Assembly: GCF_963924715.1 (NCBI RefSeq)
Contig: NC_089527.1
Location: 28,314,551 to 28,378,550, forward strand
Length of the DNA stretch: 64,000 nucleotides
Direction: 5' to 3'
DNA from: Thunnus thynnus
Taxonomy: Eukaryota
Shown: one piece after another, positions 16,624 to 46,358 of the stretch
Position numbering within the stretch: position 1 is the first letter of the stretch
Layout: each line of letters opens with the position of its first letter
Notes under the pieces: model-generated
Seen by the model: only the letters and a program-made list of their open reading frames with translations
What the model was told of the DNA's origin: nothing
Databases searched by the model: none
Position numbers and translations under genes: made by a program

Positions 16624-16672
<49 letters not shown>

Positions 16673-17465: not shown

Positions 17466-17501
<36 letters not shown>

Positions 17502-19500: not shown

Positions 19501-20152
19501 GTCCTTCCTGTTTGTACTCTTAAAAAATACAAAAATACAATAGTATAAAAATTTCTTGTAAGTAGAGGAAAAGAAAAATACAATTAATTCAAACGAGAAA
19601 ACCACAAATGATTCAAATGAGTATATATGAATGATTCAAATGATTAACATAATAAATGATTACATAGTTGCATGATTCTCTTGACAACAGATGTGGAAGC
19701 AAAAAAAACCTGTCAGGCAGTTCTTTATCATTCTTTTCATTTTCGTGTGTTTCTTTCGGACAGGAAAAATTCTCCTCACAACCCCGCTGCCCCAGCGGCC
19801 ATTAATCAGTGTCAATAAGTGTTTCAATCACATTTGTATGCTTAATCACATGTCACAATTTTAGAGACTTCAATTCTGACAATAGCCATTGTATATGAAC
19901 ATTTCTTATATATTCCAAAAAAAACAAAAAAACAAAACTTGTCCTCAGTCAGGCTGATCGACTCATTGGACCCTATGTGTGGACCTTCCCCTGCCTAAGG
20001 TCCTTCTACCTGATATGTGAAAGAAATAGAAAACCTATAAATGTATATACAACATACTGTCAGTCTTTTTCTCTTAAGCATACATTACATAAGAACACTA
20101 TAACTTCCCTTCAGATTTTCTATAAGTTCGTCATTATGCTGTGGAATAAAGA

Positions 20153-21017: not shown

Positions 21018-21067
21018 TACAAATGTGTAATCTTCAGCAGTTGTCGTTGACTTGTTTATATTGTTTA

Positions 21068-22084
21068 TTACTTATCTGTAGGTATTGGTGCTCGTTTACA
21101 GTGTGTCAGGTGTAGCCACGTCATTCTCTCAGCTATGCGCACTGCTGTGGGTGTTGCGAGTAGCACTTGGAATGGGCCTTCCCACCTTGGAGAGCTCCAG
21201 TTCTTCCTTTTGAGCATTTTGGTGAAAACCCAGTCTCCTGGCTTCACAGGTGTCGTTTGGTCAGAGACTGGCTCTGTGGGTGAGAGGACTGTAGACATAG
21301 TCTCTTTGTTTTTCAACATCCTGCTCATATAATCTACAATCGTTTCTGTTAATTCTGTGTCATCTCCCTTTAAGTTAATCAAAGGTACTCTGTAGGGTCT
21401 ACCATATAGGATTTCAAAAGGTGATTGTCCTGTATTGTTAGGCTGTATGTGAAGGCTTAACATTACTGCTGGCAAACAGGTTATCCGTCCTTTCCCTGTG
21501 TCTTCCATGGCTTTCCTGAGTTTAGCCTTGATTGTACCATTTGCTCTTTCCACTAATCCTGCTGACTGTGGATGATAAGAACAATGATATTTCATTTTCA
21601 TGGAAAATATTTCACTTAGTTTAGCAATTACATCATTTCTGAAATGAGGTCCATTATCACTATATATAATTTCTAGAAACCCAAATCTCGGTGCAATATG
21701 TGTTACTAGAGCTTTCACTACTGTTATTGCATCACTTCTTACTGTTGAAATGACTTCAATCAATTTTGAATATAAGTCTATGATTACTAAGCAGTATTTT
21801 TTGTTTTCACATTTATTCAATTCAATGAAATCCATGCGTACTGTGTGAAATGGGATTTGTGCATTGGGTATCCTGCCTGATCTTGGTTTCAATTTACCTT
21901 GAACATTCTGTTTTCCACACACTACACATGATGCACAAAAAATTTTTGCATAATTTTGGAATCCATAGGTTGTATATATTTTGTTTATTAGTTCATACAT
22001 ACCTCCAGTTGATGTATGGATCAACCCATTCATCAATACTGCTGCAAATCGAAATAAATTCTTTGGAAGAATGTACTTTCCCAC
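21068..22084 (-). pseudogene. ERV integrase.
   Basis: A 338-aa ORF containing an HHCC-type zinc finger (..HTSTG..C..C), the catalytic-core residues (VRMDFIEL, YSDNGPHF) and a C-terminal SH3-like region. Confidence 0.8.
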
Positions 22085-22262
22085 TAGTCATTTCCATAAT
22101 TCATATTCAGATAATTTCACCCCTTTCTTTGCCCAAAACTGTCTCTTTGAGTCAGGTGAGCTATGTTTTATGTCTTTTAAAATGTCATGATCAATGTGTG
22201 AAATTTGCTCAGCTGTGTATATGTCTTGGTTTTCTTGTCTAGCAGCAGCTGCTTTCGCTTCC

Positions 22263-23208
22263 TCATCCGCCTTCCTGTGAGATTAAGTCATCTCCTGAAG
22301 TGTGAGCAGCACACTTACATACTTCTATCTGCAGTGGCAATTGTACAGCCTCTAATAAGGCTGAAATCAAATCAGTGTGTAAAATTGGCTTTCCAGTGGA
22401 CGTAATCATACCTATTTTTCCACTGTTGTGCGAAAATATGTAAGGTGTTAAGAGCATATGCACTATCAGTATAGACAGTTACTCTCTTTCCTGCTCCTAA
22501 CTTGCATGCTTCAGTTAGTGCAATCAGCTCTGCTGCTTGAGCTGAGAAATGGGGTGCAAGTGCTTTTGATCACAGTACTTTGTCTATAGTTACCACTGCA
22601 TAACCACTACTATTTGTTCCGTCCGGATTCTTTTTGCATGAGCCATCTACAAACATCACTACGTCTGGGTTTTGTAACGCCACATCAGTTAGATCTGCTC
22701 TAGGTAATACTTTTTTCGTTGCTTCAGCCACACAATCATGTTTGGTGCCTTCTGTTTCGTTTGGAAGTAGTGTTGCCGAATTTAGAGTTGTACACCTGTC
22801 AATAGTTAGGTGAGGCTGAGAGAGTAGAATGGTCATGCAGTTAAGATGTCGAGCTACAGCGTGTGACACTTTCAGTGTTAATGGATGAAATAAGATGATT
22901 GTGGCTGAACTTTGTATTGCTAGGGCTGCTGCTTGTACAGCTTGCAAACACTGCAGCATCGCTCTAGCTATTGGATCTAGTTTAGATGAATAATATGCCA
23001 CAGGTCTAAGTTTCCCTCTTAATGGCTGGGTTAACACACTGGTTATAAACCCACCTCTAGCATCACATGTTTGTACAAAAACTTTCCTATAATCTTGAAG
23101 TGCCAGTATTGCTGAACTCACAAACAGTTGTTTTATTTGCAAAAATGCATGTTCTCCCTCTGGAGTCCGTGATAACATCATTGGCGGCCATGGGTCATAG
23201 ATAAGCAT
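22263..23208 (-). pseudogene. ERV RT connection / RNase H.
   Basis: VMFVDGSC...GYAVVT at the RNase H N-terminus, with a C-terminal CKCAAHTSG. A frameshift lies between the two ORFs. Confidence 0.65.
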
Positions 23209-23400
23209 TTGAAGTTGGTGTGTTACTTCAGCATAGTTTGCAATCCACGCTCTTCAGAAGTTAGTCATCCCTAGAAATTACATAATTTGTCTTTTTGTCT
23301 GCGGTTTGGGTGCTTGTAATATTGCTGTTTTCCTATTTTCATCTAGGTGTTTGCTTTCAAAAAAGATATTAAAACCTAAATATTTCACTGTCTTTTTCCA

Positions 23401-24075
23401 TTATTGTAATTTGTTCTTGCTTACTTTATGGCCCTGTTCTGCCAAATATTTTAATAGCGCAATAGTATCAATTTTACAATCCTGTTCATTTCCTGACGCG
23501 AGTAAAATGTCATCAACATATAATAACAGTTGGCTCCCCCTTAGGGAAGTGAATTGTGCTAAGTTGGATGACATTGCCATTGAAAAGATCGTCGGGCTTT
23601 CACAATGTCCTTGTGGGAGTCTTGTGAATGTATACTTTTTACCCCTGTATTGAAATGCAAACCAAAATTGATCTTCCTTATGGAGCAGAACAGAGAAAAA
23701 TGCATTAGCTAAATCTATCACTGTTAAGTATTTAGCTTATGGATTACATTCATTTAACAGCGTGTGTGGGTCTGGAACGAGGGGAGCACGTGGTATTACT
23801 GCTTTATTTACTGCCTGTAAATCCTTTACCATCCTCCATCCTGTTGATGGGGCTGCCTTTTTTACGGGGAACAGGGGGCTATTGCATGCTGCATCTGGGC
23901 ACTCCCTGATAACTCCTACACTTTGTAGATCTTGTATTATCGGTGCAATCCCCTCTTCCGCCTCTAGTTTAAGTGGATACTGTCTCTGATATGGCCTGTA
24001 AGAGCCTTTTGGAGTTTTTTTAACTGGTTGTATTCCTTTAATAAGTCCTACATCAGCTGATCCTTTGGACCACAA
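23401..24075 (-). pseudogene. ERV reverse transcriptase.
   Basis: RQYPLKLEAEEGIAPIIQDLQSVGVIRECPDAACNSPLFPVKKAAPSTGWRMVKDLQAVNK, followed by LLYVDDILLAS (YVDD box) in the next ORF. This is MLV-like RT architecture. Confidence 0.85.
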
Positions 24076-25244
24076 CTTTTGAGGTACACTGTTTAGGTCT
24101 AACTCTTCTTTGTCAGTGTCATGGGTTCACCATCTTAGTGACTATTTTTCATGTTGTTCACCTGCCTGATCTCTAACTCTCCTGTCATTGCAGATCCTGC
24201 CACACCCATCTGCCCTGCAATCACCTCATTCCCCTCACCTGAGTTTCCACACCCATCTCCTCACCTGGATTCCATTAGGCTCATCAGTCATTCCTTATAT
24301 ATACTGGTCCATATTCACATGCTCCTTGCCAGATTGTTTGCCTAGCTTTCCAGCATTTCTATATCTACCTGTTCGCTCGCCTGTTACCTGAGATCCTGCC
24401 TGTTTCCCGGTCTTGAGATTTGCCTAGTCCTTTTGAGTTGTCTGCCTGATCTGCCTGTCTGCCTGGTTTGTGACCCCTGCTTGGTTTTTTTTTTTTGGAC
24501 TGATTAAAGAATATTGGACTCTGCTCCTGTCTCTGAGGATGTGCTTTTGGGTTCTGAGGTTCTGAGTCGTTACAGTCAGTTAGATTGAATCAGGCAGTGG
24601 TAAAGTCTAGGCTGGTTTCTCCACTGAGGTGAACCGCTTGTACCGTTTGTGTTACCCAGTTCAGGTGGGTACAGTACACATTTAATTTGGGTGCAAATAA
24701 CACTCTCTCTCTCACCTCCTGCCACTCACAGTTTGATCTCTCTATTTTTGAAACAAACTCGCCTAAATCTTTCCACTGCATCTCTTGGGTTTGTAAACAG
24801 GAAATGTGCGGTGTCAGGCTTCCTCAATAGTTTTGCCTTTGCTTTTCGGAGGCTCACCGCGCAAGCACAGTTTCCTTTTTGGTCCCAATACAGTTTGGTG
24901 ATAGTCATTTTGCAGCTGGATTCTTTAAAGAACTTTTCATGATATTCTCTGTCTTGTTCATTTTGATGTGGAAAGTACATTGTGCAATGTAACTCTTCGG
25001 GTGTGTGCGCTTCAATATTTTTTATTTCAGCTGGAGGAATGCGGTCTTTTACCAATTTCATTAGCTCCTGAGTTATACTTCCTGGCCCAGTTTGAACTAA
25101 ATCCAAACTGTACCAGTAATTTAACGTCAGTCCTTCGCACACAAATGTTTCTGTGTCGTCCTCTTCATCACTGTCGGTTGTTTTTAGGTTAACTTGGCAG
25201 GCTTTAGTACCAGAGCCATTTTGATCTGGTACTCCAGCTATCCC

Positions 25245-25420
25245 TAATTTCGTCATCAAATCTCTTCCTAAGAGCTTAACGGGACACATTTGTGATATTA
25301 CCACTGAGGCATATATGTTTTTGTTTGTTTTGGGATCTTTTTATTTTAGAAGTTCAGTTAATGGTTCAATAGTCACATGTCCTGTGGCTGATCTAACCCT
25401 TAAACCGCCGTTTGGTTTTA
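25245..25420 (-). pseudogene. ERV protease remnant.
   Basis: LCDSGAC (D-S-G active-site motif) at about 25420, and a C-terminal LLGRDLMTKLG motif at about 25277-25245. Interrupted by a stop. Confidence 0.5.
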
Positions 25421-25867
25421 GGGTAAAATCTGTCCCTGTTTAATTACGTCGCACAACTGTTCAGCAAGCTCCAGAATCACATAAGAATGTTATTGATTTA
25501 CCCCGTACCTTTAATACTATCTATGGTTTAGTCCCTTCCTGTGATAGTAAAATTTCAGCTGTTTGTAATGATAGGATTTCATCTACCTCTGTCTCCCTAT
25601 CTGCTAGTGTGTGTGTGTGTGTGTCGGTGTTCCGGAGCCAGTCATACAGAGTAGTTTCTTTCCTGTTCTTCTTGTCTGGGTTTCGCTCCTCCGCTCCCTC
25701 CTTTCCCCCGTCCTCCTCCTCTCTCGCCTCCTAATTTCTTTGGAGCTCTGCAGTCTTGTGCATACTGTCAAGGTTTGCCACAATTACATTTATATTTTTC
25801 ATTTAGCAGATGCTTTTATCCAAAGCGACGTACATATGAGACTGATACAACACAAGCAAGGATCTAG

Positions 25868-26807
25868 TCAGGAGACAACAACACAAGTAAGTGCCATAAA
25901 GCTTAAGTTTGGGCCCGATAGGATGTAGATGCCAACAGGCAGTGCAACAAGGCAATGATTAGAGTGCATAGAAGTATGTTTTTTTGTTGTTGTTGTTTTG
26001 GGGTTTTTTTGTTTTGGGTTTTGTTTTTTTTCTATCCTAGTGTCATCATTATCATGCAAGAATGTATCTACAACCTTTCTTTTCTTTTTCTTTGCTTCAA
26101 TCATTTCTTCTGCATGGGTTGCATAATCAATGGTTCTCTGCAACCCTGCATTTTTCCAGGCAATCAGATGTTTGGCCACAAATTGGCTGATTTCTGGTCT
26201 AAATCCAATCATTTTTTAATTGCATACTGTATGGACTATGTCAGTTTCTCATTCATGTGTACAGTATGTAAGTAGCTGTATACTGTACCACTTCGTGTAC
26301 TCCGAAGAAACTGAGGATCTTGTGAATGCGTCTCTCCTTTCCGTGGTGTGATGTCAACCTTCGTGAAGGGGTTGTGGGGTGAGAAGGCAGGAGGTGGAGC
26401 AGTCAGCAGTGGAGGAGGAGGAGGTGGTCAAGGTTCGGGGTAAGGCGGAGGATCCGGACGGGACCCACATGGCACGTAGCTGTCATCATTCTGCCAGTCT
26501 TGTTGTCTAGCAACCCTTTCTTCTTTCTTTTCTGAAAACCAGTTCATCTGGCTCTTGCTTCTGTCAGCCATGACTTGGCCTGTAGCAGACCTTCTTTCTT
26601 TGACTTCCCCTTTTTCCCTTTCGTTCCTTCTGAAATTGCCTTTACTAATTCTTCGCAAGCTTCTACGTCTAGTTTTCCTACAATGTCATACTTTTCCTGC
26701 CATATCTTGAGATATTTAACATAATCAGGATGGAGTAGTTTCATGCGTTTGGCGTCTCTACCATATTTCTCTGCTTGTGGTATTTTACAGCTACAACAGT
26801 TACCCAT
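25868..26807 (-). pseudogene. ERV gag (fragmented).
   Basis: Gag begins MGNCCSCK at ATG 26807-26805 (myristoylation-type N-terminus). A PPPY late-domain motif lies at about 26451-26440 in a shifted frame. Basic KKKRK tracts are present. Confidence 0.65.
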
Positions 26808-27149
26808 TGTAGAGGCCTCTTTTTTTTCTCTTTTCTTTTTTTCTCTTTTTTTGTATGTGGTAAGGCTATTTAATTTCCTTGTTTTCCCCTTAACAGCCAA
26901 CCAGTTTGTATGGAGTTCACCTGAGCAACTGGTCTGATCAGTGAAATTGTGTTCTTGTAAGGCCTTTCTCAGGTCCATTGCCTTTTGAGGACCTAACACT
27001 GAGTGCCAAAATGTTAAAAGAATTTCTTCGTAATGACCATTAAACAATAGAGACTGGAACTGAAGTATCAAAATTCAGTAGAATTTATTTTCTTGCACAA
27101 GAATGAGCGTTTCAGGATGAGATAACAAAGAAAAGATAACTTGTCTCAC

Positions 27150-28382: not shown

Positions 28383-29527
28383 GTGAGTCTGGTTAACATT
28401 CAGAAGTTTAAGTCAGACTGAACTCATGATTATAGGAGCTGATTATTCTACTCTGAAAGATGATGTCCTGACTTTGTTCTGGTTTGCGTTGGTCTTAATT
28501 ACTGTTTAAATTTGTTAAGGTGTCATAAAAATACAACATTGACTACAATATACACATTTTTAAATAGATGAGATAAAAAGATTTTCCTGAGGAATGTGAC
28601 TTTTTTTCAAATATTTTAACAACAATTCACATCTTGGAGAGAAGGAACAATTCTTTTCTCTCCAAGATGTGAATTGAGTGATTGTACAATTTGTATTTTG
28701 TCATTGTTCACTGTAAATGTACATTACCATAAATTTGTTTATTTGTTTGTTTAATAAGTTTGTTGGCAAACTAATGAATGAATGAATGCTCCATAGTACT
28801 GTGGTAATAATAGAAAATGACCTACTGTGTGTCAGAGTTGCACCAGAGATAGAGAGAGAGATATTTAATAGACTAATTTAAAATCATCAGCGTCAGCTGT
28901 CGTCATGGGGCAAAATTAGGAAACAATTTGACTTGTGTTGATATTGTGTCATATTACATGATGTGAATTTGTAAGGTATTTGCTGTTTCACAGACATGTC
29001 ATGACATTTCAAAGACATGCCTCATTCAGGGTTGACAGGCTTGTCAGGGACAAGTGAGTTGAGTGGAAGAGAAATTTAGTTGCTCCACTGGACAAGTTAA
29101 AGTCATTTAAAAAATGTGTCTCCATGTTATGTGCAGTGTTTCCACTACCATTGCCTTATCCCCCGCACCTCCCGAAAGAAACAAATATAAACAAATGTAA
29201 CGTATACTCACAGCTGAGCGCGCGTAAATGCCGTTTAGCCACCTCTCAAATTCAGAAATAGCATTTATGCAAACTTTAATGACTTTACAACTGTTAGCTC
29301 AGACTGGCTTCCTACTGCAGCTTGTTACTGTTAACATTGACCAACAAAGCACCATGAGCTCCTGCTACGCAGGTGTTCAAAACAAACGAACCCTCCGCGT
29401 TGAAGCTAGCAGGCAGACTGGAGCCACTTTCATGAGACAGACGAATGAATCAGAGTTCAGAAGATCATATATGACATTAACATGTGCGGCATCAAATAAT
29501 AATGTCAGACAAAAGACAACAAAGTAA

Positions 29528-30690
29528 GTAGTTAGAAAAGCTCTTCAATGAAACAGAAGTTTTTTAAATTGACATTAATGTTGTTTTAACTGTCCAGTTT
29601 ATCTGGTGTTGCTTTACTCCTGGGACACACTAGATGCGTGAACAGCGCGTGTACGTCGCGGAACTTCTTGCTTTTCGTGTCGGCGCCCATGTTAACAGGT
29701 TAGAGCAGCCACACTGCCCGTGTGAGACGCATGAGGCTGCTGCGTCGCTTCATCTAGAGATTTGAGGTCTCGCCTATTTTCTCCGAGTGATGCGTGCGGT
29801 TCTCAGCAGAAATAGACAGGGAAAACGAGAAAGATAGGGCTGCCAGTGGCAGAAGCGCCGCAGCAGACACGCTTCCAGTGTGGACGCTGCAAGAGTGAGA
29901 GACGCAACAGTTCAGCAACGCACACGCACTGCTGAGGTTCACGCATCCAGTGTGTTCCAGGCGTTACCCCTGAATTCCACCAGGCATGTGTGCGCCGCGT
30001 TCCGGCTCCGATGCAGAGAAGCATTTCAGAAGCGGCTCTCCGCTCTGCTGCACTGAAGATAGGTGTCTCATCTATACTTTACGGAGGCCGCGTCAAGCAG
30101 CACAGAGCAGATCGAGCTGGGCAGGAAGTCAGACACAGAAACAGCATTCAGCATCCGGTCAGTTTTCAAAATAAAACACCCCGTGCAGACTCCTGGTCGT
30201 ATATCAACAATAAACGCAATTAAAACAGATGAATAAAGAAACCATTTAACTACATAGCCTACTTAACCATAGCAGAAGCACAAAAATCAAGGAAAATGAC
30301 CAAATCAACGAAAGCTGAGCAAGTTAACAAAATTGGGCAGTTTAGTTGCCCTGCTACTGCAGTAATTACGGTAGCCTTAAGGGACTTTATCAGCTTTGAC
30401 TAAGCTGCTGTAATTACTGTAGTAGGAGTGCAACTGACTTTTAACAGTGGAAGGCTTCCCCACAGCGAAGACGCTCCGCTTCTGACACGCTCCCGGTGGA
30501 ATAGGGCGCTGTGCAGAGAATGGAGCAAAACCGTGTCGGAGCTGGAACGTGGCGCACATGCACCCGGTGGAATCCTGGGGTTACAGTAATGTTAATGTAA
30601 CGTTAGCTTGATAGTTTGGAGAACTTGACTGCTTATGCATTCCCACCGTGTGTAGTTTGTCTACAATTACTGTAATTAACACCACACCAG
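29528..30690. repeat. 1.16-kb GC-rich block present only in duplication copy 2 (insertion in B or deletion in A).
   Basis: Copy 1 joins aataataat|agttaaag at 360-370. Copy 2 has this block in between. The block contains internal inverted repeats (ctgcagtaattacggtag / ctgtaattactgtagtag). Confidence 0.5.
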
Positions 30691-31003
30691 TTAAAGTTGT
30701 GCTTCATGCTCTGTCAGATTTTTAAAAGGAAGTTTTTTATATTTGTGTGAGTGAGTGAAGGAATCAGGAGAGAGGAGACAGAATTGAGGAAGCAGGATGT
30801 AAAGTTAAAGGTGTTGAAAGAAAAATGAGGAGAAAATAAAGAACTGATTCAAGAAGGAAGAAGGTGCAACTGTTTCAAGATGTAAAGTAGTAGAAAAAGG
30901 AGAGAGAAAGAAAGAGAAACAAAAAAGCAGCCCAGGCGTCAGGTGATGGAGAGACTTGAACACATTCAAAGCAGGAGGCAGAAAAAACTAGTAAGGTCTA
31001 GAT

Positions 31004-32217
31004 CAGGGGTCTCAAACTCAAATTACCTGGGGGTCGCTGGAGGCAGAGTCTGGGTGAGGCTGGGCCGCATCACGTATTCCACAAAAAAGGCGATGACTAC
31101 CGGGTTGTTCATTACCCGCCGTGCTTTTGTTGTTGTAAACGTCGTCATAGAAACAAGTGAAACAAATGGCATCACAAAGAAATATCCTAATGTTTATTGT
31201 GCAAGGCATTTACTATGGAGTAAAATGTTTTGAGGAATATATCTCTTTCTGCAAATGATTCAGTACATTCCATTCACTCAAAAGATTTTTTCGAATAATT
31301 TGTCCGTGAATGTCACATCATTGCAGAGCAAACGTGGAGAACATGAAGCCGGGACAGTGGGACACCATTATCCCATGGTTTGCACCTCTATGGCTGCAAA
31401 CCATGGGATGCAGCCATGGAGGTGTTATTCATTGGCTTTTATTTTCTGAAATATGCACAGACATTATTATCTGCCAGACTTATAAAGACGCAGATACACC
31501 TGGTTCTGTTTTTTTAATGTCACACACTGTGGAATCACATGAACGAGCCTCATTTGCTGTCACAGTGAGCCAAAAATGGATGTAAAGGTCTTTAAACCTC
31601 CGTTTGTACGTCAACAGTTGTGTCCATTCTGCTCATCAGACCTCAGTGAGAATTATGCACAGGCTCTCCAACAGCTAATCATTACACACGGCTGCTGTGG
31701 ATATTTGAAACGACTTTATCCCTAATTCATCACATTTTTCTGCAAACCGTCACCACTGTAAAGTGTCAGTCATCATTATTAAACATCAGAAGAATGATAA
31801 ATGATTTATTGATAGAGCTCGTGTTAAAACGGACTTTACAAAGTGCTTCAAAACAAAATGAAGTGATTGTTAACAGAGAGATGATGCTGAAATAAACAGA
31901 ATGATGCTTTAATAAGGTTTAATAATTCACCTTTGAATTTTACTGAAAGCTGTGTAGCAAAATAAAGACATAATCTAGCGTGAGGTTATTCACATTCTCA
32001 GCGCACATTCTTCCTGTATAAATAGCATAGTTGTTGTGAAACAGCCATATACCCCTGTGATTGGCAGGTTCGTTCAGCTCCAGCTTGTGCAATAAAGGGA
32101 CCTTCCACACACAACACAGTAAAGTGCCATTCATATAAAACTCGCTGGCCGCACTAACATTAAATTTTCATATCAAGGTGGGGGCCACAAAATATCAGCC
32201 CGAGATTGAGATCCATG
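31004..32217. mobile_element. Non-autonomous hAT-like DNA transposon, copy 2, with 8-bp TSD.
   Basis: Flanked by GTCTAGAT (30996-31003) and ATCTAGAT (32218-32225). The paralogous empty site at about 668-676 has a single GTCTAGAT. The TIRs are the same as in copy 1. Confidence 0.75.
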
Positions 32218-35200
32218 ATCTAGATGAATGACTGTTCTGGTAAATATTTTTAAAAACACAATCTGTTATCCAAACTAAAGGACATCCTAACAAACAAAAG
32301 TCAAAGTACAAGATTAAACCCTGCTATAAAAGGACTCACAGATCTTTAATACAGGTAACGTTACTAACACCACACAACAGCTCTATTAACATGATGTTTT
32401 CCTAAGCTGTTAAAAGGTTGTTGACCTCAGTAACTGTTGTAAACACAGCACTAAAACTAACAGATAGTTTCAGTTATTAGTCAACAAAATGCTGATTCAT
32501 TGTTCATCAGACTGATTCATCTATCAGTCAAACTGTTGTCTTGATTTGGCTTTAGGTTTGAGCAAATTAATTCCCCATAAGTCAGTTTTGTTATTTTGTT
32601 ATATTTCAAAAACTGATCTGTATTCAGGACCATATACACCGTGTGAGAATCCAGATTTGTTTTTAAGATCAAGACTGATCGGTCCATCTATCCATCCATA
32701 AAGCCTCCATTTATTTATGTGTTGTAAATAAATATTGTTAATATTTAAAAATTAGGTAAATAAATATTGTTGATGTTTATTTACCTAATTTTTGTGCACT
32801 TGTTTCATTTCAAGGAGGGAAGTAATGGCTTCAATAAAATTCATAAATTGAATTATTCATATGTTGACACTGTTTGCTGTCAACTGTTTGTTCATCTGAA
32901 TTCTGCGTTCTGCATTTGCAAACAAAGTGAAAAAAGTAAATTGACAGGTGACTTTTGTGCCTGGACAAGTGAAAGGTAAATTTACTTGTCCGATGGACAA
33001 GTGCCTCAGGAGGTTAATGTCAAGCCCTGCCTCATGAAATGACTAAAAAGCAGAGGCTTCAGAATTTCTTCATGTGAAATTTTCAGAATTCTCAATTTTC
33101 ATGAAAAAGGTAATGCAGTCAAGGCTGACTCACCTTGGTATTTTCATGGCCAGAGGGAGTAGAAAGAACCCATTATCATAAACTATCATGTACATTATAG
33201 GTAGGTTGGTTTCAGAGGCTGGTGACAGTTGTGGCTAATCACATTCACATTCACCCTTTTTGTCCAATTTAAAAGCAGGGCTCTCCCTGACATGATGCAG
33301 TGTTTTCTAGGAGATAACCTCAACTCATACTCTTACCCAGGAAGATTTTCATCGGACTGTCTAATGTTTCTACAAAAAGCCGCGTATGCCATCATTTGAA
33401 ATATACTATATCTGCATAAAAGTCTACACATAAGGGCTTTACGTTGAATTTCTGGATATTGAAAATAAGATGGTCAACATGATGCACCATTTGACTTAAA
33501 ATCACAATCACCCACACACTATCCACACTTGCAGTTACAAATCCTACTGTAACGCATATAAATAAAACTAAAATTAAAAACATCATTACTATACTGTAGA
33601 TTGTATTATCTTGTTTTCTTTTCTTTGATTATTATTATTTTTTACATTTAGTTCTTTTTATTTAGATGCAGCTGTTTTCACATGCAAAAAGAAATACTGG
33701 GAACAATAAAATTGCCTTTTCAATTCTACTTTCCATTAATTGGCAATTATCATAATGATCTTTTGCAATCCACAAAATGCGGATTTTATTTTTTCGGTTA
33801 TATCATTATAAATTTTAACCATCAGTGCTATGTGAACAATTATCATTTTATTTCACTTCATCATGCTGGTCAAAGCAGCCCCATGTCTATTTGCCCAGAT
33901 TTTGCCCAACTCATTTAAATGAAGAGTATAAAGAATAAACCAAGGATCACTATAATTAGTCTCTGATGCTATTTCACTTGTGCTCGCGTCATCCGCCTGC
34001 TGCTCTGACTCCAGGGCGGCTGCTGTGTCTTCTTTCCTTTCCTCTCCAGCACAGCTAGCCTCTCCCACTCCACTTATCTTCAAGCTGGGTCTCTCCTCCT
34101 CCCTGACACAGCTACTTCCATCTCCAGACTCAGCTGCTTCTGTCAGGACATGTTGTGTTAGATTTTAAACAAGCTAATAATTGGATGTTAAAGTCAAAGC
34201 TAGGTGGTAGCTTCAATAACTTCGTTGTCTGCCTTAACCAAACTACCTATAAGCCTAATCATACTAAATCAGACATGGCGAGTCCAGCCACATCTGAATC
34301 CTAAAGTTGAAGAGACCTCTTTGAGAACCTGGACTCAGTGTTGGGGTATATGACTGAAGAGTTGGTGCCTGGCTTTGCAACTCAGATGAAAGAGAAGCTG
34401 CACGACTACAGGAAGGGGACAAAACCCTTTGACAGCAACTTGAACAGGCTTTAGCCAGAGCAGAAGCGCTGCAGGCTCAATGTTGAGGGTGCTAGTGAGC
34501 CTCCAGAAGAAGAAGGGAAAGCTGAGTTGAAGGGAAAGAGCGAAAGGCTAGAACAATCCCTCCAAGAATGTAATCATGAGCTCGCCACAACAATAGATCG
34601 ACTTGACAGGCCTGATAACCTCCTTAAGTGGGCAGTAGAGGAAATAAAAGAACTGAAAGCTAAGGTCGGAGTCTATGCCAAATTTAGAGAAGCTGACCAA
34701 AAGTACATACGAGACATACAATAGCAACTACAGATAGCCAGGGACAGAGCTAAGGTGTCCCATCAGCAACCTGAAACCAAAGAGGAAGAATTGGTAGATG
34801 TTAAAGGAGAACTACAACATTCTTTTGAATCAGGTCAAAGCCAACAAGAGCCTTTAAATGAAGCTTTCCATGAGGAAAGGAAAGAGGTAAGACCCCCTAG
34901 GGGCGTTCAAGGAGGCTTGTCCTCACCACTGCTCAGTGGTGCATGAAGCCACCTGTGTGGCCCATAGAGCAAGCGCACTAGTGACTTAGGCCGGCCGGGC
35001 CGGCTACTTCTGGTTTAGCCCTCTGGCTAACTTGAATGGGGATAAAATAATTCAATCGTGTAGCTCTTCTAGACTTTCAAAATGTGATTGGACCGAACGG
35101 ATCAAATTATGAGAGTGAAACCAGTCATTTCACAGGGGTTGTGACGCTCAAAAAATGTATCCACTGATTTACAAACGTCTCTCTCACAATGTTAGTCGAT

Positions 35201-35852
35201 GGAAAAAATCTTTTTGGGCCAGTGTGCATCATGTGATGTTGCAGTTACCCGGTTTGGCCACTATGTCAAATTTACTTCAAAGCCCAGCACTCTTCCTGTA
35301 TCCAGATCTCTTTATACATCCATGGGAGCTACCAGCTTGAGTTTGCCCTGTGTGTTTCCTCCTGTGTTCTCAGCCTGCTTTTCCCTCCACTCTTCCCTCC
35401 TCACCTGCCTGAATCATCTTCATTAGTCCTGCCCTTTTCCCAGAATTTTCCCAGCCTATCAGCTTCTTTTACGTTCTTCTGTTTCATCTCCTCAGTCCCC
35501 TCACTCGAGTTTCTCTGCCCATCTGCCCACCTGCACCTCATCTCCTCATTATTTCAGTTAGTATTTCAGTCCTGTGTTTCAGTTCAGTCTTGTTGGATCC
35601 TTTGTTCTGTTAAGTTCTGCTCTGTTCAGTCTGGTTTTGTTCTGCTGTATTAAAGAGACTTCTTTCAGTGTATTCTGGCTGTTTTGTCCTGCATTTGGGT
35701 CCACCTGCTCCGTTACTCCTGACAGCTATTTGCGTTAAAATGATACTGGAAGCTGTAATTACTAAAAATGTACATTTTAAAAGTTTTAAAATGGTATTTG
35801 AGATAAGTGACTGAATAAACATAAATTTGACCTGTCTTTTGATTTATTTCAG

Positions 35853-36020
35853 ACCACAGTGTGCGCAGTTCAGCTGAAGATATCATAAACAACCTGACTG
35901 AGCATCTCCAGGACAGTAATAACAACCTTTCTCCCATGTCTGAAGAGAGAGACCTGCTGTTTGCCAACCTCACTGAAATAACTAAAGAGATGGAAAAGCT
36001 TCAGAGTTTGTCTGTACACA
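35853..36020 (+). CDS. Gene B neck exon 1 (168-nt variant).
   Basis: Acceptor tttatttcag|ac, donor caca|gtgagt. Encodes (Y)HSVRSSAEDIINNLTEHLQDSNNNLSPMSEERDLLFANLTEITKEMEKLQSLSVH. Confidence 0.7.
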
Positions 36021-36632
36021 GTGAGTGACATCTGTGGCTATACAGTACTGCCCAGCACTGTTCCTGTATCCAGATCTCTTTATACATCCATGGGAGCTAC
36101 CAGCTTGAGTTTGCCCTGTGTGTTTCCTCCTGTATTCTCAGCCTGCTTTTCCCTCCACTCTTCCCTCCTCACCTGCCTGCATCATCTTCATTAGTCCTGT
36201 CCTTTTCCCAGTGTTTTCCCAGCCTATCAGCTTCTTTTCCGTTCTTCTGTTTCATCTCCTCATTCCCCTCACCCATCTGCCCATCTGCACCTCATCTCCT
36301 CGTTATTTCAGTTAGTATTTCAGTCCTGTGTTTCAGTTCAGTCTTGTTGGATCCTTTGTTCTGTAAAGTTCTGCTCTGTTCAGTCTGGTTTTGTTTTGTT
36401 CCATTTTGCTGTGCCTGCACACCTGTATCCTTCTTAAAGAGACTTCTTTCAGTTCGGTCTGGCTGTTTTGTCCTGCATTTGGGTCCACCTGCTCCACTAC
36501 TCCTGACAGCTATTTGCTTTAAAATGATACTGGAAGCTGTAATTACTGAAAATGTTCATTTTAAAAGTTTTAAAATGGTATTTGAGATAAGTGACTACAT
36601 ATACATAAATGTGACATGTCTTTTGATTTCAG

Positions 36633-36779
36633 ACTCCGTTATCATAAACAACCTGATTGAGCGTCTCCAGGACAGTAATAACAAGCTTTCTTCCGTGTCT
36701 GAAGAGAGAGACCTGCTGCTTGCCAACCTCACTGAAATAACTAAAGAGATGGAAAAGCTTCAGAGTTTGTCTGTACAGA
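36633..36779 (+). CDS. Gene B neck exon 2 (147 nt).
   Basis: Acceptor tttgatttcag|ac, donor caga|gtgagt. Encodes ..SVIINNLIERLQDSNNKLSSVSEERDLLLANLTEITKEMEKLQSLSVQ. Confidence 0.7.
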
Positions 36780-39700
36780 GTGAGTGACATCTGTGGCTAT
36801 ACAGTACTGCACACACATTGTAGAAGAGCACCTACAGAGAACACTATGCTGAAAATAGAAGATGATGTGGGAATCTGTCTAATCTTTTAATTATACAAAT
36901 GATCTTCAATCAACAATCAATGTTGTAACTTGTTGATTGTAACTGTAAAAAACTTTGTGGATTCGTTCTTGTATTTACTCATCTTCAAACATTTTAAAAT
37001 TTTTGTCATCAGGAAATTCCAAACACCGTCAACATTTAGCATGTTAGCATTCTAACCAATAATATCATGCTAACATGCTAAATGTGACTTTTGTAACACG
37101 CTACAGTAAGTTTAGCATGTTACAATGCAAAATGTGGTAACACTTGCTATGACGCCTATGATTATAATACATTATAAACATACTTGTAATGCAGTGTGAT
37201 CTGCTTATAGCATTGTATAATTATAGTTCTAAGCACTCATAAATATTCATAATGCTTTATAAGAATAATCATAACACATTATGATGTATTCTATAATGAC
37301 TTATAAGGCCAAGTATCATAATACTTCATAATTGCTGATCACTCACTGACCTTTTTTTTCATAGTGATCACAGTGTATTATAATTCTCATAGTTGTAATG
37401 CATTATAAAATGATTATAATGTCTCAATAATCACTGTTATGATGCATTAAAATGTGATTGTAAGTTACTCTAAGTGGTTATTGTTTGCTTGTTAAGTCAA
37501 GTAAAGAAAATATCATTAAATCTATGCAAAAACACTCAGGACCCTATTTTAACGATCTAAGCGCACGGTCTGAAGGTTTTAATTGCTGAAAGTATGGAAA
37601 CCTGATCACTGTAATCTCAAAAATGTTAAAGATTATTTGTTAAATATTGTCCAAAAATTAAAACATTAATTTTAATCATATAAAAAATCATCATACACAG
37701 TTGTCAGGACTTGATCAGCTCTCCGAGGTGCTGATCCTGCTGCTGGCAGCAGCTAAGAGCTGTGCACCATTCTTTCCTTCTTTAGATTAATCATTGTTTT
37801 CACTTAATTTATTTCCCCATGTGTTCCTCATGTCCTCATGTATTGATGGGCAGGAAATCCATGTCTGATTCGTTGTTGAAATCCGTTTGCTGGGTCTGAC
37901 ACACACCGTCAACCTGACAGGTTTGTTTAAATACCTCTGTGTATTGCCACGATATGGTCAAATAATTAGACAATTTCGTCCGTCATTACTGCAATTAATT
38001 AATTCTGATAAATATTAGGACTAAACATTATGACATGTATTTTTTAAAATATGTTAATGTACACAACAATATTCTTTCACAATATAATCCTTTCTGTGAT
38101 CTTTGCATGTTTGTGTGCTGCTGTGTGTCTGTGTGTGTATGCGCGTTGTTCACCTGCCTATGTAGGCATATTACTGTCTTGATAATGCGCCTTAAAAATA
38201 ACAGTGAAATACTGTACCATCAACCTCAGACCAGGTTTTTGTTGCTCAATAACGAAATCGATTTCCGCTGCCTCAATATAGCAATGCACCAACAATGCGC
38301 CCGACCACACCTCATTTTAAGACCAACACGCCCATGGGCACTGAGATGGGCACAAGTGGTAGTGCTATTTAAACTACGTGGGTGCTTAAACTAGCAAAGA
38401 CTTTGTACCGGGTGTAAGATAGGGCCCAAAATGTTGTAAAATTAATTTGTTCAAAGAGTCATAACACACAATGAAGTGAGTACTCCCATTTGACAACGAA
38501 CAACTGAATGATGGACATTTACAATTCACTAATGTAAGTGAGAAATACTGCCTACACTCATAATTTGAAAATTAGCTATATTGGCTCAAAAAAACAAGTA
38601 ACTTTAACTTTAACTAAAATATATTACATAGAATAATATTGCTGTATTGTTTGTTTATATTTCATAAGTATTATATTTAGACTTGGTCCTCAAAATGAGT
38701 TGAAGTGAATGAGGAGCCTGACACCTGGGAGGAATGGTGGTGTTGACGGCGGATGACGGGGACAGTAGTGGACACTAGCTTATTAGTAGATGACTTTGGA
38801 CAGAGGTAAGACTGCTGATTTTTGACAAGTTCTACTAAAGTGAAGTGTTAACACCAGTGCTATTTTTTTTAAGGAGTCACTTTTGTTGATCAAACGTTTA
38901 CATAAAAGTAAAGTATACAGCTACAGGTAAAGTATCATTGTTTCAGGTATTGTCTATCATTTGAGTCAATTTAGTGAGTTCTTTGGGGAAACATTACATT
39001 AGTCAAATGTAAATGTCCATCATTCAGTTGTTCATCATCAAAAAGTTGTGTCACATTGGAGTACTCAATTTCTGTTATGACACTTTAAACAAATAAATGA
39101 ATTTTACAATGTTTTGTGTTCTTGCATAGATTTAATATTTTTCACTCAAAGCAAACAATGACCACTTATAATGACTTATAACCAGCGTGTAATGTATTAT
39201 ATCTGCCCATACCTCGAGAATTTCATTACTTCACTTAAAACACCCAATGACCACCTAGAGTAACTTATAATCACATTTTAATGCATTATAACAATGATTA
39301 TATTTTTTTACAACTATGAGAATTATAAAACACTATGACCCTTGCAAAAAATGTCAGCGTGTGACCAGCAATGAAGTATTATGATACTTGGCCTTATAAG
39401 TCATTATAAAATGCTTTATAATGTGTTATGATTATTGTTATAAAGCATTATGAATATTTGAGTGCTTATAACATAATTATACAGCTATAAGCAGATTATA
39501 ATGCATTATAAATATGTTTATAATACATTATAAACATGGGTGTCAAAGAAGTGTTACTCAAATAGTTATGTGTATCACATGTAATTAACTTTGTTCAACC
39601 CTGAAAATTGCCACTAAAATGATCTTGAAACAAATGTTTCCACATCACTCTGAGGTAATTCGTCACTTGACCAGGATTAGCTTCCGAACTACTTGTGATG

Positions 39701-41303
39701 TCATAAATCATGCTGGTAAACTCAGATTTAAGGTGAGCACAGAGAGACTTTCCCCTTCAGATGATGAATGTGAAAACAAACTGCACATACATCATTCAGA
39801 ACAGTAAAGCACAGACAGTACAGTTAGTACAGTAGACGTCTAGAAAAGTTTTACTTTTTAACCAAATATACAAAAGATCTGACTTCAAAGTGAACATAAA
39901 GTGGCTTGTATATCATTAGTTATATCATAAGTTCAAGCACCTTATTTGATCCGAGTCATCAGGACATAAGTAGTGAAGTATCCCACTTCAGTATCTCGGA
40001 GTTAACTACTTATTTAACTATTTGTGTTTTAAGACAGCATCCCCAAATGTTAAGGTGGCTTTCAGGTTGTCATATTTTTGGTCTGTAGCCAAAAATCACA
40101 TAACAAATGATGCTGATTGAAAACTAGTTTTTATGGAAGATCAATATGCTGTGTATCAATATGTTGTGTACAATAAGAAAACTATGATTATAGTGGGAAG
40201 GTTAACATTTTTTCTTACATTTAATAGATATAATCTAAGGAAATAGCTAAGATATTTTTATTTTATTAAAAACAAAGAATTACTGATTTACAATATACTT
40301 TTATTGAAGAAGGATGCTTTCTCTTCCACTGGTCCAACGTTACTCAGAAGTACTTCAGACAATCTCTGGTTGTCTTATTCAAAACAAAGCACTCACAAGT
40401 CCAGTTTTAGAGACCTGCACCTGACTTGACCTGTTAATGTAACATGAAACCTGACCTATAATCAACAGACTACACACTCAGTTAACAACACTTTATTTGT
40501 TACTTTCACATGACCAAAAAACAAGTCAGGTTAGCCTTAACTAGGATAAACAGATGTTTGCTTAATAACACAAAGATCACTGGTTTAACTGTAGGCTGAT
40601 TTAAAGTTTTATAAAAGGATTAAAGGATTGATGATTTTTTGAGCTACCTGGTGCAAGACTCTGACTCAAATGTAATGGTAGTGGTGGTATTACATGAATT
40701 TTTGTTTATTCAAATTTTACTTTCATCTGGTGGTGTGAAAGCTGAGCTTTGTGAGATCCTTGTATGGTGATTTAAAGCATGTTGTGATTGGAGACACAAA
40801 GCTTTTGCCACTCGCTTTGGAAGAACTGCTGAGAATGGTTTCAAAGCATTTTATACATTCAAAAGGAAGGCATCTGCTGGCCAAACCTTGGTATTGAGCT
40901 CATGATCAAACTGTGAATCAAACTAGCTGTCAAAGAAAGTGAGCGCAGTTATTTTTGAGATTTTTATGAACCCATATGTGTTTATTTCTGTGGTGTCATC
41001 CAGTATTAGTATCCCACCTCAAAATCTGACATGGAGACACAGAAAGAATGAGCTAAAATCAACAGTTTGTTCCATTATCTTCAAATAAAAACTGATGTCA
41101 TCAAAATAATTTGAAAGATGCAATAATCACAAAAATTGTATTCATACCACAGAACTGCAGCTAAAAATCAGCACCAGAAATGCTCCATAGTTGGTAGAAT
41201 ATCAACAAGTCAACTCTAGTCACATGTTATGTTGTTTTAACCCTCATACTCTGGAAACAGACAGACTTGATTCTTGTCTAATTTCTAATGTTGTGTGTTA
41301 CAG

Positions 41304-41446
41304 AGAAAACTTGTCCTGCAGGATGGAGGATGTTCAGACGTTCCTGTTATCTCCTCTCCAGTGAGTCTGGTCCCTGGTCAAGAGGCAGACAGGACTGCCG
41401 AGAGAAAGGAGCAGATCTGGTGGTTATAGACAGCACTGAAGAACAG
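41304..41446 (+). CDS. Gene B CTLD exon 1.
   Basis: Encodes (K)KTCPAGWRMFRRSCYLLSSESGPWSRGRQDCREKGADLVVIDSTEEQ. Acceptor gttacag|ag, donor cag|gtacag. Confidence 0.8.
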
Positions 41447-43075
41447 GTACAGACTGTTTGTTTCTATGCTTGTAAAGAAACTATGCCTAATTGCAATCTT
41501 CCTGTACCTTTAAAAAAGCTAAAATACTTATTTATTTATTTTTATGGATCATTGGTGTTCAACACCTTGACAACAATAATTCAAATGATTTGAATGAACT
41601 TGTGCTGCTCTGTAGCATGTTTTGCTGGTACTCTTAAGTTTGCACATTTGCCTTAAAATCAAAGTATTTCATTGCATCTTTAGCAAGCTAGCTAACATTC
41701 TTTTAACCTTTCACTATGTTTTAATCAAACTCCAGAAGCAGTCACTTATACACTGCAAGTATTTAATCAGTACAAATCTGTGTATCAGTTTAAGAAAAAA
41801 CATGATGATGTCTGGCAACAGGACTTCTGTATACAGTAATTTATGCACAATTTAATGACATTTCTTATTCCCTGATTCTTGAGAAAGATGAAGTTTATAA
41901 ATAAAAATAGTTATTAATAAGTATTCAAATAGTGCTAACACTAGCAGTCACTACGTAAATGTGCTTGTAAATGAGGACAAATACAGGTCAGTCTGGGGGA
42001 ATCAGTTCCCACCAGGGGTGCAACAGATCACAAAACTCACAGTTCAGATCGTATCATGGTTTTGAGTCACGGATCGGATCATTTTTCGGGAAAGGAGAAA
42101 AAAGAAAAAGGAGACAAATATAACTTTGCTTTCCATTTATTCTGTAAAAGACTTAAAGCAAGGAACTTTTGCCAGTGGTCTTCTGTGAAAATATTCAAAA
42201 TCTCCAATGTTTAAATAAAACCTTAAAATATATCAAATATTCAGTACGAAATTGTTAAATTAAAATGCAATATGAGGCATGATACCTTTTTCTTTTAAAC
42301 ATGGTAGTGAATGAAAAAATAGCCTGTGTCCACATCATCAAAACTTGATGATAACTTACAAACATGAGCACACGTCTTGTTTTGCAGTTTAGCTTGTTGA
42401 ATGAGCCACCAAACAAACATTCACCAGGGAAAAGTGCACCGTTAATGTCAGTCAGCAGCTAGATCACTAATTAGCTGCTCAGCTGCAGCACATTAAACAT
42501 CATGTTAACATAGCTGCAGATGTCACTACGGACCCACTAGATGCTGGTTTGGTTGTTGCTCTTCAAAATCCTGTTAGTGACACGCTGTCTGTCCATGACT
42601 TGTAGCTACATCAGTTTGTTTACTTTGTCTCCAATGAGACATTACATTTTGCAGTTTATCCGCGGTTCACATTCATGCTGAACTGTGGGAGGCGATTCAT
42701 ACAGATCACAGATCAACTACGTTCCGTTACACCACTAGCTTCTACTAAGCTTTGTGCTGTCAATATTTTTTTTGTTTTGTTTTTTTTTCTTTAGTTTATC
42801 TATTTGTACAAATAACAAGACACAACAACCCATAATGCATTAAAGGATTAAAGAAGGACTGTGCAAGTGAGATTCTGAAAAAACAAAAGGGCACCTCAAA
42901 AAAGTTTTTTTAAATAAATCTAAAATTTAAGTTTATCAAACAAGAAAAAAATATGATGATAATGATTATATTATTATTATATTTCAATAATAATAATGTA
43001 ATCCTATGTAAACTGCATATTGTTGTTCAAAAAACAATATAAATAATATGGCTTTTTTCCCTTTTTTGAAAACAG

Positions 43076-43179
43076 ACATTCTTGTCTACCTTCACTGAGG
43101 TAGAAACTTGGATTGGTTTGACTGACAGAGACGAAGAGGGAACCTGGAAATGGATTGATGGAACACCACTGACTTTAAG
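43076..43179 (+). CDS. Gene B CTLD exon 2.
   Basis: Encodes TFLSTFTEVETWIGLTDRDEEGTWKWIDGTPLTL. Donor aag|gtttgg. Confidence 0.8.
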
Positions 43180-43790
43180 GTTTGGCTTCAGTTGGTTGTT
43201 TATTGACAACATACACAAACACTGCTGTATATTAGAGGTTGGTGATATGTATTAAATCTTCTATCACAGACAATGTGAGGTGACTGGCAGTTCCAGGTTG
43301 GTCTGAAGCTTTTCTGGTTAAATCATCAGTGCAAAATGATAATTATGAGAAAAAATCAAACCAAACTACCGTTTAATGGTGCATCTGAGACGGAGTTTCT
43401 GGTCCACAGTCAAGTTTTACACTTCACCAACTGTACAGTACTGTAACTGATGACCAGAACACTATGGGGGTGTTTATTTATACAGGAGGCTCCTTTGTTG
43501 CTATTTGATGACTGCAAATTTATATTTAGGAAAAATACTACAGTGAACCTGCAGCCCTGTTCAATTTGCTACTTTATAGCTCAAAACTATACTAAGGCAC
43601 ATCATGCAAGATAGAATAAATTCCATTCTGTGATGTTTGTGAAGAAATATTATTTACAACCCTACTTTTTGCCAGGAAGAATAAGTACAATGAATAGAAT
43701 GAGACACATTCAGTTTTCTTATGTTCCAGTGAAGGACTGTGTTCATGTCAGAGATTAAGTGTCACGATTCTCTTGTTCACTGACCTGTAG

Positions 43791-43953
43791 GTACTGGAGG
43801 TCAAATCAGCCTGATAATGGAAATGGAGATCCGCAGTGGGGTGAAGAGGACTGTGTACATATCAGGGCTGAGGGGAAAACTGGAGACAACTGGAATGATC
43901 TGTCATGTGATACTTCTCTGCAGTGGATCTGTGAGAAAAATGCTGGTGTATAA
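43791..43953 (+). CDS. Gene B CTLD exon 3 with stop. Carries a QPD motif.
   Basis: Encodes (R)YWRSNQPDNGNGDPQWGEEDCVHIRAEGKTGDNWNDLSCDTSLQWICEKNAGV*. TAA at 43951-43953. Confidence 0.8.
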
Positions 43954-46358
43954 TATGTAAAAATGCTTTTTCAAAGCAAACTATGATTTTGCAAAAGGCA
44001 AATTAGTTTGTATGTGTGTGAATTTGAAACTTTTCTCTGCTGTGCTGATGACCTTTTGCTTCTGCTCTGCCTTTTTAAAGAGATTTCTATAAATTAGATG
44101 TTTACAGCTTTTGCCAGAAGAGCTTCATTAACCAATTTCCAATGTTTCAAACAACTAAAAGAAGCAAACAGATAAAACAAATCAAACCTCTGCAAAATGC
44201 AAGATTCATAAAAACCTTTATTTTGATTAATGTCTTAGCTAAAGATTTCATGATAGTTGAAAGTTGCAAAAAACCTGACTGAGACCATTTCTTATGACAT
44301 CCCTCATATCATAATTAAACAATGTAATATAGATTTTGTGTAATTATGTCTTACTATATCATCAAATGACACTTTTCTGAAAATAATTTTTAAATGAAGT
44401 CTATTCAGCAGCTGACAGATCTCTTTAGCAGAGGCCATCAGTGTTTGTGAATTTTACTTGATAATTAGTGGTTTCACTCAGGAAACACTTGCTGTTGTGA
44501 GAAAATTATCAAATTATTTTAGAAGAATTGTAAACCAAAACTATTCAACAGATGAGTCAATATAAAGTCAGTCAATTACAACATATAAGCACTGTACTGG
44601 AGTCAGACGTTTGTCATGATGTCCTTTGTAATGCTGGTAGCTGATACTGGTTGTGGCTTTTTGTGTAATTATGAAAACAATTAAAATCTTTTTAATTAAT
44701 TTGTTTTCAGTGTCTTTATTTTTATTCTATCATCATTAATTGTGCAGAAAAACTCTGTTCTACTGGGATGTGAGAGGTCAGCTACAGATGGGGATTTCAT
44801 TCATTCAAAACTGAACTTGGTTAAAAGATGATCTGTCTTTTCACCACACTCTCATGCTGTATTCAACAGGCACTAAGTGAAGAAAACAACTCTAACAATG
44901 AAACAGAACATCCTGTATCTCAATCTAGACAATCTACTGGATGAGATCTGAGACTGTCTTCACCAGAAAAATAAAAGCACTGGTTGTTTGTACAAGTGAC
45001 TTGAGGAAGAGTTCAGGTGGACAGGTGGGTCAGCAAACCATGTGGCTTTGACATGAGAGATGGCTGTTCTTTTGTTTACTTAACTAAAACTACTTGGTTG
45101 GAGTTGAGGAAGGATTGTCTTCATGGTTCAAAGGAACCAACGTTGACTGTTAGACAGAACCGTTGTACACCTACCATCCATCACAACCTCCACCTCCAAG
45201 CATTAAGGTTCCCCAGAACTGTCTTTTGTGTCTATAGACCAGATGCATGGGGACTTAATTGTAGAATGTAATATTGAGCTTTATGACACAAAGTAGATCA
45301 TATTGTATATTATGTATCCTGCTGGACTTCAGTCTAAAGCAATATGACATCTTTAATGTGTATTGTGTATATAATTAGACTTTTGTGTTGTGGTTCCTAC
45401 ACCTGCTGTATACACCAATACATATGATCTGTGTTGTGGGCTTGAAACAAAAGATGGTGCAGGTGTGATGTCACTATCACTAATCCTAACTATCTCACTC
45501 CTTATGCCTTGGCATAGGCACCCCATTAGATGGCCATCTATCATTAGACTGCTGTAATTCCTTATAAATTGGTCTTAGTCAGTCTTCCATATCCCGCATG
45601 CCACTTATTTAAAATGCTGCTGCTCCTCCGTCACTCCTGTGTTGGCCTTTCTTCACTAGTTTCCTGTTCAGCATAGAATTAATGACAACATCTCACTGTT
45701 TCTCCTTATATTTCTGACTTTTAAACCTTCCAACTGCTCTGGGTCTTTGAAGTCTTCTGATTTAAACCCATAAGTGCCGCCATAAACACTGTTACACTGT
45801 GATATTAGTATGTTATATGGGCTGCTAGGTGATACTGCTACATCAGTGTTGCTTGTTCTTACACAGCTGATTTTTTACATTGGTGACAGTGGTGTCATGG
45901 ACACAAATACCACAAGGCTTTGCCTTAACTTATCTACTTCCTCAAAAAATCCCCTGTTGCCACTGTTCTGTGGAACAAATGTATTAGAGAGCAGTTTACA
46001 GACATGTAAAACATAAACATTCTGTGTAAGAATGACAAAAAAACAACAGCCATTATTGGTATTATGAAAAACAATATGAATATTTTCTCTACGCGCAAGA
46101 AATGAAAATCTCCTTCCAATGAGCTTACTACCAAACAGCATCCATATGTTGATTTCTGTTTAAAAAGTAAAACAAGACAAGAGACTCATAGAGTTTTTGA
46201 CAGTTCCTGTTTCAAGTTATTACCACAGATTGTATCTATTTTTAGTATATTTGTGTGAGAAACTGAACCCAACAAGAGTTTCATCATATGCTATACATGC
46301 GTTGTAGCTTGTGCTTCAGAGCTGACCCTTTAGAAAATAGTTGGCATCCTTAAGAGCG

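Follow-up and report, generated by a model that had tools for sequence, protein, structure and literature searches.

Two non-autonomous hAT elements in a duplicated C-type lectin region of Thunnus thynnus, one of them standing at a deletion junction

We analyzed a 64,000-base stretch of Thunnus thynnus DNA (assembly GCF_963924715.1, contig NC_089527.1, positions 28,314,551 to 28,378,550; hereafter the window), which has a G+C content of 37% and the character of fish DNA and which carries two related transposable elements, A and B, within segmentally duplicated sequence. Self-BLAST of the window revealed three related segments:

about 1 to 17849: copy 1
about 29143 to 50380: copy 2
50758 to about 61545: copy 3, a tandem repeat of 39971 to 50758

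A preliminary description of this stretch, made from its letters alone, had proposed a segmental duplication. The paralogous copies were confirmed, but there are more than two of them, with a further tandem duplication of 39971–50758. This tandem duplication, about 10.8 kb in size, is located within copy 2; its two units have diverged by about 3%, and its junction falls at about 50380–50760. Substitution divergence between the copies was about 3–3.7% (Kimura two-parameter distance [K2P] 0.03–0.037, or about 0.03 without CpG sites). An exon on the plus strand at 41282–41590, with paralogues near 10000 and 52066, was recognized as the first of a C-type lectin domain (CLEC4/CD209-like), indicating that a lectin receptor gene is the unit that was duplicated. 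With a probability of about 90%, we consider A and B to be two non-coding, non-autonomous hAT copies of the Buster/Charlie lineage that were inserted after the duplication, B having subsequently come to lie at a deletion flush with its terminus.

Element A was delimited by comparing its filled site in copy 2 with the empty paralogous site in copy 1, which gave the following features:

31004 to 32217, plus strand: element A, a 1214-bp non-autonomous Charlie/Buster-type hAT whose termini are homologous to those of the autonomous elements L005 and L007 (see below)
30996 to 31003, plus strand: left target-site duplication (TSD) of A, GTCTAGAT, the same 8 bp that stand once at the empty site
32218 to 32225, plus strand: right TSD of A, ATCTAGAT, matching the left TSD at 7 of 8 positions
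31004 to 31015, plus strand: left terminal inverted repeat (TIR) of A, CAGGGGTCTCAA, identical to the TIR of the autonomous elements L004 to L008
32206 to 32217, minus strand: right TIR of A, read on the minus strand as CATGGATCTCAA, matching the left TIR at 10 of 12 positions
665 to 672, plus strand: empty site in copy 1, a single GTCTAGAT with no footprint

The filled site consists of AGTAAG, GTCTAGAT, the element (CAGGGGTCTCAAAC...GATTGAGATCCATG), ATCTAGAT, and GAATGAC, whereas the empty site reads AGTAAG, GTCTAGAT, and GAATGAC, so that the filled copy is longer by exactly 1214 + 8 bases. The flanks of A are truly paralogous in the self-BLAST comparison, positions 364–672 aligning with 30689–31003 and positions 666–2669 with 32219–34212 (at 95.7%). 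The 1214-bp element with TIRs and an 8-bp TSD that the preliminary description had recognized in copy 2 was therefore borne out by this exact length difference; the empty site that it had placed in copy 1 did contain a single GTCTAGAT and no element, although at 665–672 and not at about 668–676.

The second, longer copy noted in the preliminary description at 13106–14515 was also recovered with the same boundaries as A, the first and last bases of the two being alike. Its features and those of the corresponding sites in copies 2 and 3 are as follows:

13106 to 14515, plus strand: element B, 1410 bp, of the same family as A, with both termini intact, without a TSD, and at a deletion junction
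13098 to 13105, plus strand: left flank of B, ATGTAGAT, the presumed original target site, fitting the target preference of the family
14516 to 14523, plus strand: right flank of B, CGTTAGTA, which does not duplicate the left flank and is homologous to 49574–49581 (copy 2) and 60649–60656 (copy 3)
45291 to 45298, plus strand: unoccupied homologue of the left site of B in copy 2, AAGTAGAT
56217 to 56224, plus strand: unoccupied homologue of the left site of B in copy 3, ATGTAGAT
45299 to 49573, plus strand: interval missing from copy 1 at the right end of B, as present in copy 2 (4275 bp), including a long interspersed nuclear element (LINE) fragment found in copy 2 only
56225 to 60648: counterpart of the missing interval in copy 3 (4424 bp)

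The TIRs of both elements are 12 bp long and imperfect, pairing at 10 of 12 positions in A and at 11 of 12 in B, and the right ends of the two share a CAG-to-CAT variant. Three indels separate A from B, two of them giving B an extra 34 and 200 bp and one giving A an extra 42 bp, and the two copies differ by substitutions at 3.6% of positions (K2P 0.037, or 0.026 without CpG sites). A near-perfect overlapping palindrome was present inside both copies, at 13510–13564 (CCATGGTTTGCA...TGCAAACCATGG) and at 31370–31435 (CCTCCATGGCTGCA...TGCAGCCATGGAGG); an Rfam search with B returned just sub-threshold hairpin matches, which arose from this palindrome. No copies or fragments of the family other than A and B were found in the 64-kb window, and the other near-matches to the TIR there (24467, 39535, and 51519) were isolated and had no family context.

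Unlike A, B is flanked by two different 8-mers, ATGTAGAT on the left and CGTTAGTA on the right. Beyond the unoccupied left site, copies 2 and 3 continue with CATATTG..., whereas in copy 1 the end of B, ...GACCCATG, is joined directly to CGTTAGTA; the endpoint of the deletion is thus the intact element terminus, where the TSD has been lost. About 2.4 kb of the missing interval is common to copies 2 and 3, the remainder consisting of later copy-specific insertions, and the interval was found to have no TIRs or TSD of its own. Since a hAT element inserting into an already existing junction would have generated a TSD, and since the interval has neither TIRs nor a TSD, we conclude that the interval was deleted from copy 1. 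In addition, the left 8-mer fully fits the target preference of the family, suggesting that B was first inserted there. The right junction falls 47 bp short of the end of one copy of a repeat, R; at the position of the right-flank 8-mer, copies 1 and 2 read TTAG, and copy 3 and the other R copies read TTTTG. A comparison of TIRs and TSDs across copies had been proposed in the preliminary description, with inconsistent TSDs to count against a hAT origin. Between the two copies in the window the boundaries coincided, but B had no TSD, a feature that had been missed. B fails this test of TSD consistency because the deletion is flush with its right end and not because it is a non-hAT element.

We then compared A and B with copies outside the window. 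A metagenome scan with a 24-base terminus as the query returned two loci, which had just this terminus in common with A and B. The first (L001) was a 71-bp miniature inverted-repeat transposable element (MITE), in which both the 15-bp TIRs (CAGGGGTCTCAAACT) and the 8-bp TSD (GCATAGAC) were perfect. In the second (L002), the terminus adjoined GTATAGAT, and a transposase open reading frame (ORF) fragment was located about 600 bp inward, homologues of which carry DUF4371 and FAM200-ZBED5_RNase-like domains; Pfam gave no match to this ORF itself or to the ORFs of A and B. At positions 1–140, the L002 contig also ends in a different repeat, in which AAGTA and ACTTAAGT motifs are abundant and which may be the end of another DNA transposon. 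A decayed transposase contig (L003), in which no clear TIR was found, led to full-length relatives of 606–644 aa that are named "GTF2IRD2-like" by their sources. The autonomous hAT-encoding relative for which a search had been suggested was found in this way in five fish genomes:

L004, GCA_977066305.1: 2489 bp, TSD TTCTAGAG
L005, Oryzias javanicus: 3330 bp, TSD GTGTAGAA
L006, Carassius auratus: 2409 bp, TSD CTCTACAC/CTCTAGAC, matching at 7 of 8 positions
L007, Merluccius polli: 3372 bp, TSD CCCTAGAG
L008, Labrus bergylta: 2367 bp, TSD GTTTAGGG

All five have an intact ORF between CAGGGGTCTCAAAC-type TIRs, with an 8-bp duplication flanking the element, and the TSDs were perfect in four of them as well as in L001. 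L004 showed a perfect 14-bp TIR match, and the other autonomous elements were 1–4 bases off that 14-mer at one end. Pfam identified zf-C2H2-SPIN-DOC, DUF4371, FAM200-ZBED5_RNase-like, and FAM200-GTF2IRD2-like domains in every one of these proteins, and Dimer_Tnp_hAT in four of the five (L005, weakly in L004 and L007, and faintly in L006; none recorded for L008). A and B aligned with the O. javanicus element for 81–93 bp (85%) of one end and, at the opposite end, for 81 bp together with the TIR (81–84%); with the M. polli element they aligned at both ends over similar spans. In window orientation, the left end of A and B is the counterpart of the end that lies downstream of the transposase gene in the autonomous relatives. 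Target sites had TA at positions 4–5 in nine of nine cases (A, the left flank of B, L001, L002, and L004 to L008), and positions 3 and 6 tended to C and G.

Conversely, the interiors of A and B (about 1 kb) matched neither the autonomous elements nor anything else. The concatenated ORFs of the elements (844 aa) had no homologue among 5.8 billion proteins, and tblastn of the five transposases against the window detected no transposase coding sequence, indicating that A and B are non-autonomous derivatives. Terminus scans of viral contigs and prokaryotic genome contigs returned 0 matches, and a literature search for the TIR string yielded PCR primers only.

hAT elements are defined by 8-bp TSDs together with TIRs of 10–25 bp (PMC8961557). 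The consensus target of Buster elements is nnnTAnnn, and a resemblance of these elements to TFII-I-family proteins has been described (PMC3517528); in fishes, gene models labeled "GTF2IRD2-like" are hAT/Charlie transposons that were misannotated (PMC10641963). All nine target sites above fit the Buster consensus. The hAT assignment made in the preliminary description, which agrees with the 8-bp TSD and the short CAG-type TIR, is now further supported because the autonomous relatives with the same termini encode hAT-domain transposases. The Pfam families, the names given by the sources, and the published reannotation (PMC10641963) suggest that the transposases belong to the Buster/Charlie lineage rather than to Ac or Tip. 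A and B share the CAGGGGTCTCAAAC TIR, the 8-bp TSDs, and the central TA with the Charlie/Buster-type "GTF2IRD2-like" fish elements (hAT-6-like in PMC10641963), and they share 80–120 bp of subterminal homology at both ends with L005 and L007, but they differ from the autonomous elements in having no transposase, an unrelated interior of about 1 kb, and a right TIR with CAT in place of CAG.

The term MITE, used for A in the preliminary description, is loose for A and B. Like the hAT MITEs, such as Mar of Drosophila willistoni in the Buster family (PMC3517528) and L001, they are non-coding, retain only the ends, and have TIRs and, in A, an 8-bp TSD of the nnnTAnnn type. However, miniature elements are typically shorter than about 600–800 bp, and at 1214 and 1410 bp A and B are too long to be MITEs in the strict sense; the true MITE with the same ends is the 71-bp L001. 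A and B are an ordinary member of a well-known and widespread fish transposon lineage, and the position of B at a deletion junction is the sole mildly unusual feature, the element type itself being already known.

Regarding timing, A was absent from the sole paralogue covering its site, and B was absent from both paralogues covering its site (copies 2 and 3). Insertion of both after the duplication is the simplest reading, and the order of events given in the preliminary description, duplication first and hAT activity later, agrees with the clean empty site of A. A LINE reverse-transcriptase (RT) fragment at 47760–49432 (RT ORFs at 48615–49322, minus strand), which splits a copy of repeat R, occurs in copy 2 only; its absence from copy 3 indicates that it is another insertion younger than the duplication.

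Several points weigh against this interpretation of A and B. The CAT at the right TIR of both elements departs from the canonical CAG end. A and B have diverged from each other (K2P 0.037) as far as the paralogues have, so that the age of the elements lends no independent support to the order of events. The autonomous relatives all come from other species, the partner in this genome being presumed, and the non-autonomous family was examined in two copies, those in the 64-kb window. Finally, the structure at B would be produced alike by alternative transposition, by two insertions followed by recombination, and by end cleavage followed by resection and end joining, and the sequence at B does not discriminate between these deletion mechanisms.

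We propose the following history. A and B have kept about 80–120 bp of each end of an autonomous element, around an unrelated, non-coding interior. Being non-coding with autonomous-type ends, they would have to be moved in trans by a "GTF2IRD2-like" hAT transposase, presumably encoded elsewhere in the genome. After the C-type lectin region had been duplicated, A was cut and pasted into GTCTAGAT in copy 2, duplicating the 8 bp, as the filled and empty sites show, and B would likewise have been pasted into ATGTAGAT in copy 1. A second event at the right terminus of B would then have removed the right TSD and the adjoining sequence (about 4.3 kb as it stands in the present copies 2 and 3) and joined the intact terminus to CGTTAGTA.

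A deletion flush with an intact terminus points to the transposase, and we infer that the most likely cause was a transposase-mediated event, either alternative transposition (sister-chromatid or hybrid-element) or recombination between two insertions. The right-flank 8-mer has a TA center, which would be expected by chance with a probability of about 0.1; it is weak evidence for a transposase-made junction and slightly favors these two routes over end joining. Alternative transposition of hAT elements (Ac/Ds) and of P elements generates flanking deletions that end at the element terminus (PMC3744419). The structure at B resembles the products of maize Ac/Ds sister-chromatid and reversed-ends transposition and of P hybrid element insertion (PMC3744419) in its terminus-exact deletion, the loss of the TSD on that side, and the retention of the element. 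The maize events, however, were seen arising, with their reciprocal products, whereas B is an old end product with a structure that two-copy recombination also gives. We suggest only tentatively that B is the remnant of an alternative transposition event (sister-chromatid or hybrid-element type) of a vertebrate hAT of the Charlie type, in which the transposase deleted a few kilobases beside a C-type lectin gene. If so, hAT-driven rearrangement would have helped to shape a tandem immune-gene cluster and possibly its duplications.

A possible but doubtful origin of the deletion is homologous recombination between two directly oriented copies of the element, inserted at ATGTAGAT and, a few kilobases away, at CGTTAGTA. 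The resulting hybrid would keep the outer TSDs, so that intact ends with non-matching flanks, exactly as seen, are predicted, and the TA center of CGTTAGTA is that expected of a real target site. On the other hand, CGTTAGTA fits the fuller preference (C3/G6/A7) worse than the other sites do, and two independent insertions in copy 1 plus a recombination would be required of a family seen just twice in 64 kb. Simple double-strand-break repair, in which a cut at the right end of B by the transposase or by chance was followed by resection and end joining with no second integration, appears unlikely. hAT transposases cleave exactly at the element end, and this fits a flush deletion, but hAT elements do not normally undergo cleavage at one end while staying in place, the junction shows neither microhomology nor filler, and the right 8-mer is target-site-like, albeit at the chance level given above. 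There is also a small likelihood that the missing TSD and interval are an assembly artifact, with two element copies collapsed or a misjoin across repeats, as the region is dense in repeats and near-identical paralogues. Nevertheless, the flanks of B differ by 3–4% from the other paralogues and continue without a break into copy 1 on either side, and the junctions are base-exact at both termini.

We also considered the possibility that A is older than the duplication and that copy 1 subsequently lost it with base precision, whether by perfect excision repair, by a TSD-to-TSD deletion, or by gene conversion with an allele lacking the element. A and B differ from each other about as much as the paralogues do (about 3.3%), suggesting that the last source common to the two elements dates from roughly the time of the duplication, and a family of this age would be compatible with an early insertion. 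However, hAT excision normally leaves footprints, and the empty site is one exact GTCTAGAT with none; early insertion would also need one event more than simple later insertion, and B is likewise present in one paralogue only. We therefore regard a pre-duplication origin of A as very improbable. An origin in another superfamily with 8-bp TSDs (P, Mutator-like, or Zisupton) has a negligible chance: an 8-bp TSD alone is not unique to hAT, and the right end reads CATG, which is P-element-like, but the relatives sharing the termini and subterminal homology encode only hAT-type proteins (Dimer_Tnp_hAT, DUF4371, and FAM200-ZBED5 RNase-like).

Together, post-duplication insertion of A and B provides a relative timing marker, in which both hAT insertions and the LINE insertion are younger than the duplication of the lectin cluster, and indicates past activity, in this lineage, of a Charlie-type hAT family that has intact relatives in several teleosts. 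The deletion flush with B is a naturally occurring case, in a vertebrate array of immune genes, of a flanking deletion associated with a transposon; it is useful for studying the remodeling of immune-gene clusters and opens no new question.

The window contains further repeats and mobile sequences. Repeat R, about 1 kb in length, was found at 4772–5803, 36105–37136, 47233–47760 plus 49382–49622, and 59683–60697; it is partly tandem at 4028–5487 and 35282–36816, with long low-complexity ORFs. A dispersed repeat, R2, occurred in five copies with 80–90% identity (7867–8696, 14575–15410, 39140–39968, 49633–50692, and 60708–61445), and its presence at two paralogous positions indicates that both R2 insertions predate the duplication. 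The junction of the tandem duplication adjoins R2 copies, but its switch point lies outside the aligned homology, and we accordingly dropped unequal crossing-over between two R2 repeats as the origin of that duplication. A 1185-bp block at 29504–30688 in copy 2 is absent from copy 1 (between 363 and 364); no clear TIR or TSD was visible at its edges, and it contains a long internal inverted repeat (about 29940–30010 versus about 30535–30590). This block could be another mobile element or could reflect a loss from copy 1. The unique spacer between copies 1 and 2 contains a gammaretrovirus-like endogenous retroviral element on the minus strand (about 20100–27100), with integrase core, MLV IN C-terminal, RNase H, and RT domains.

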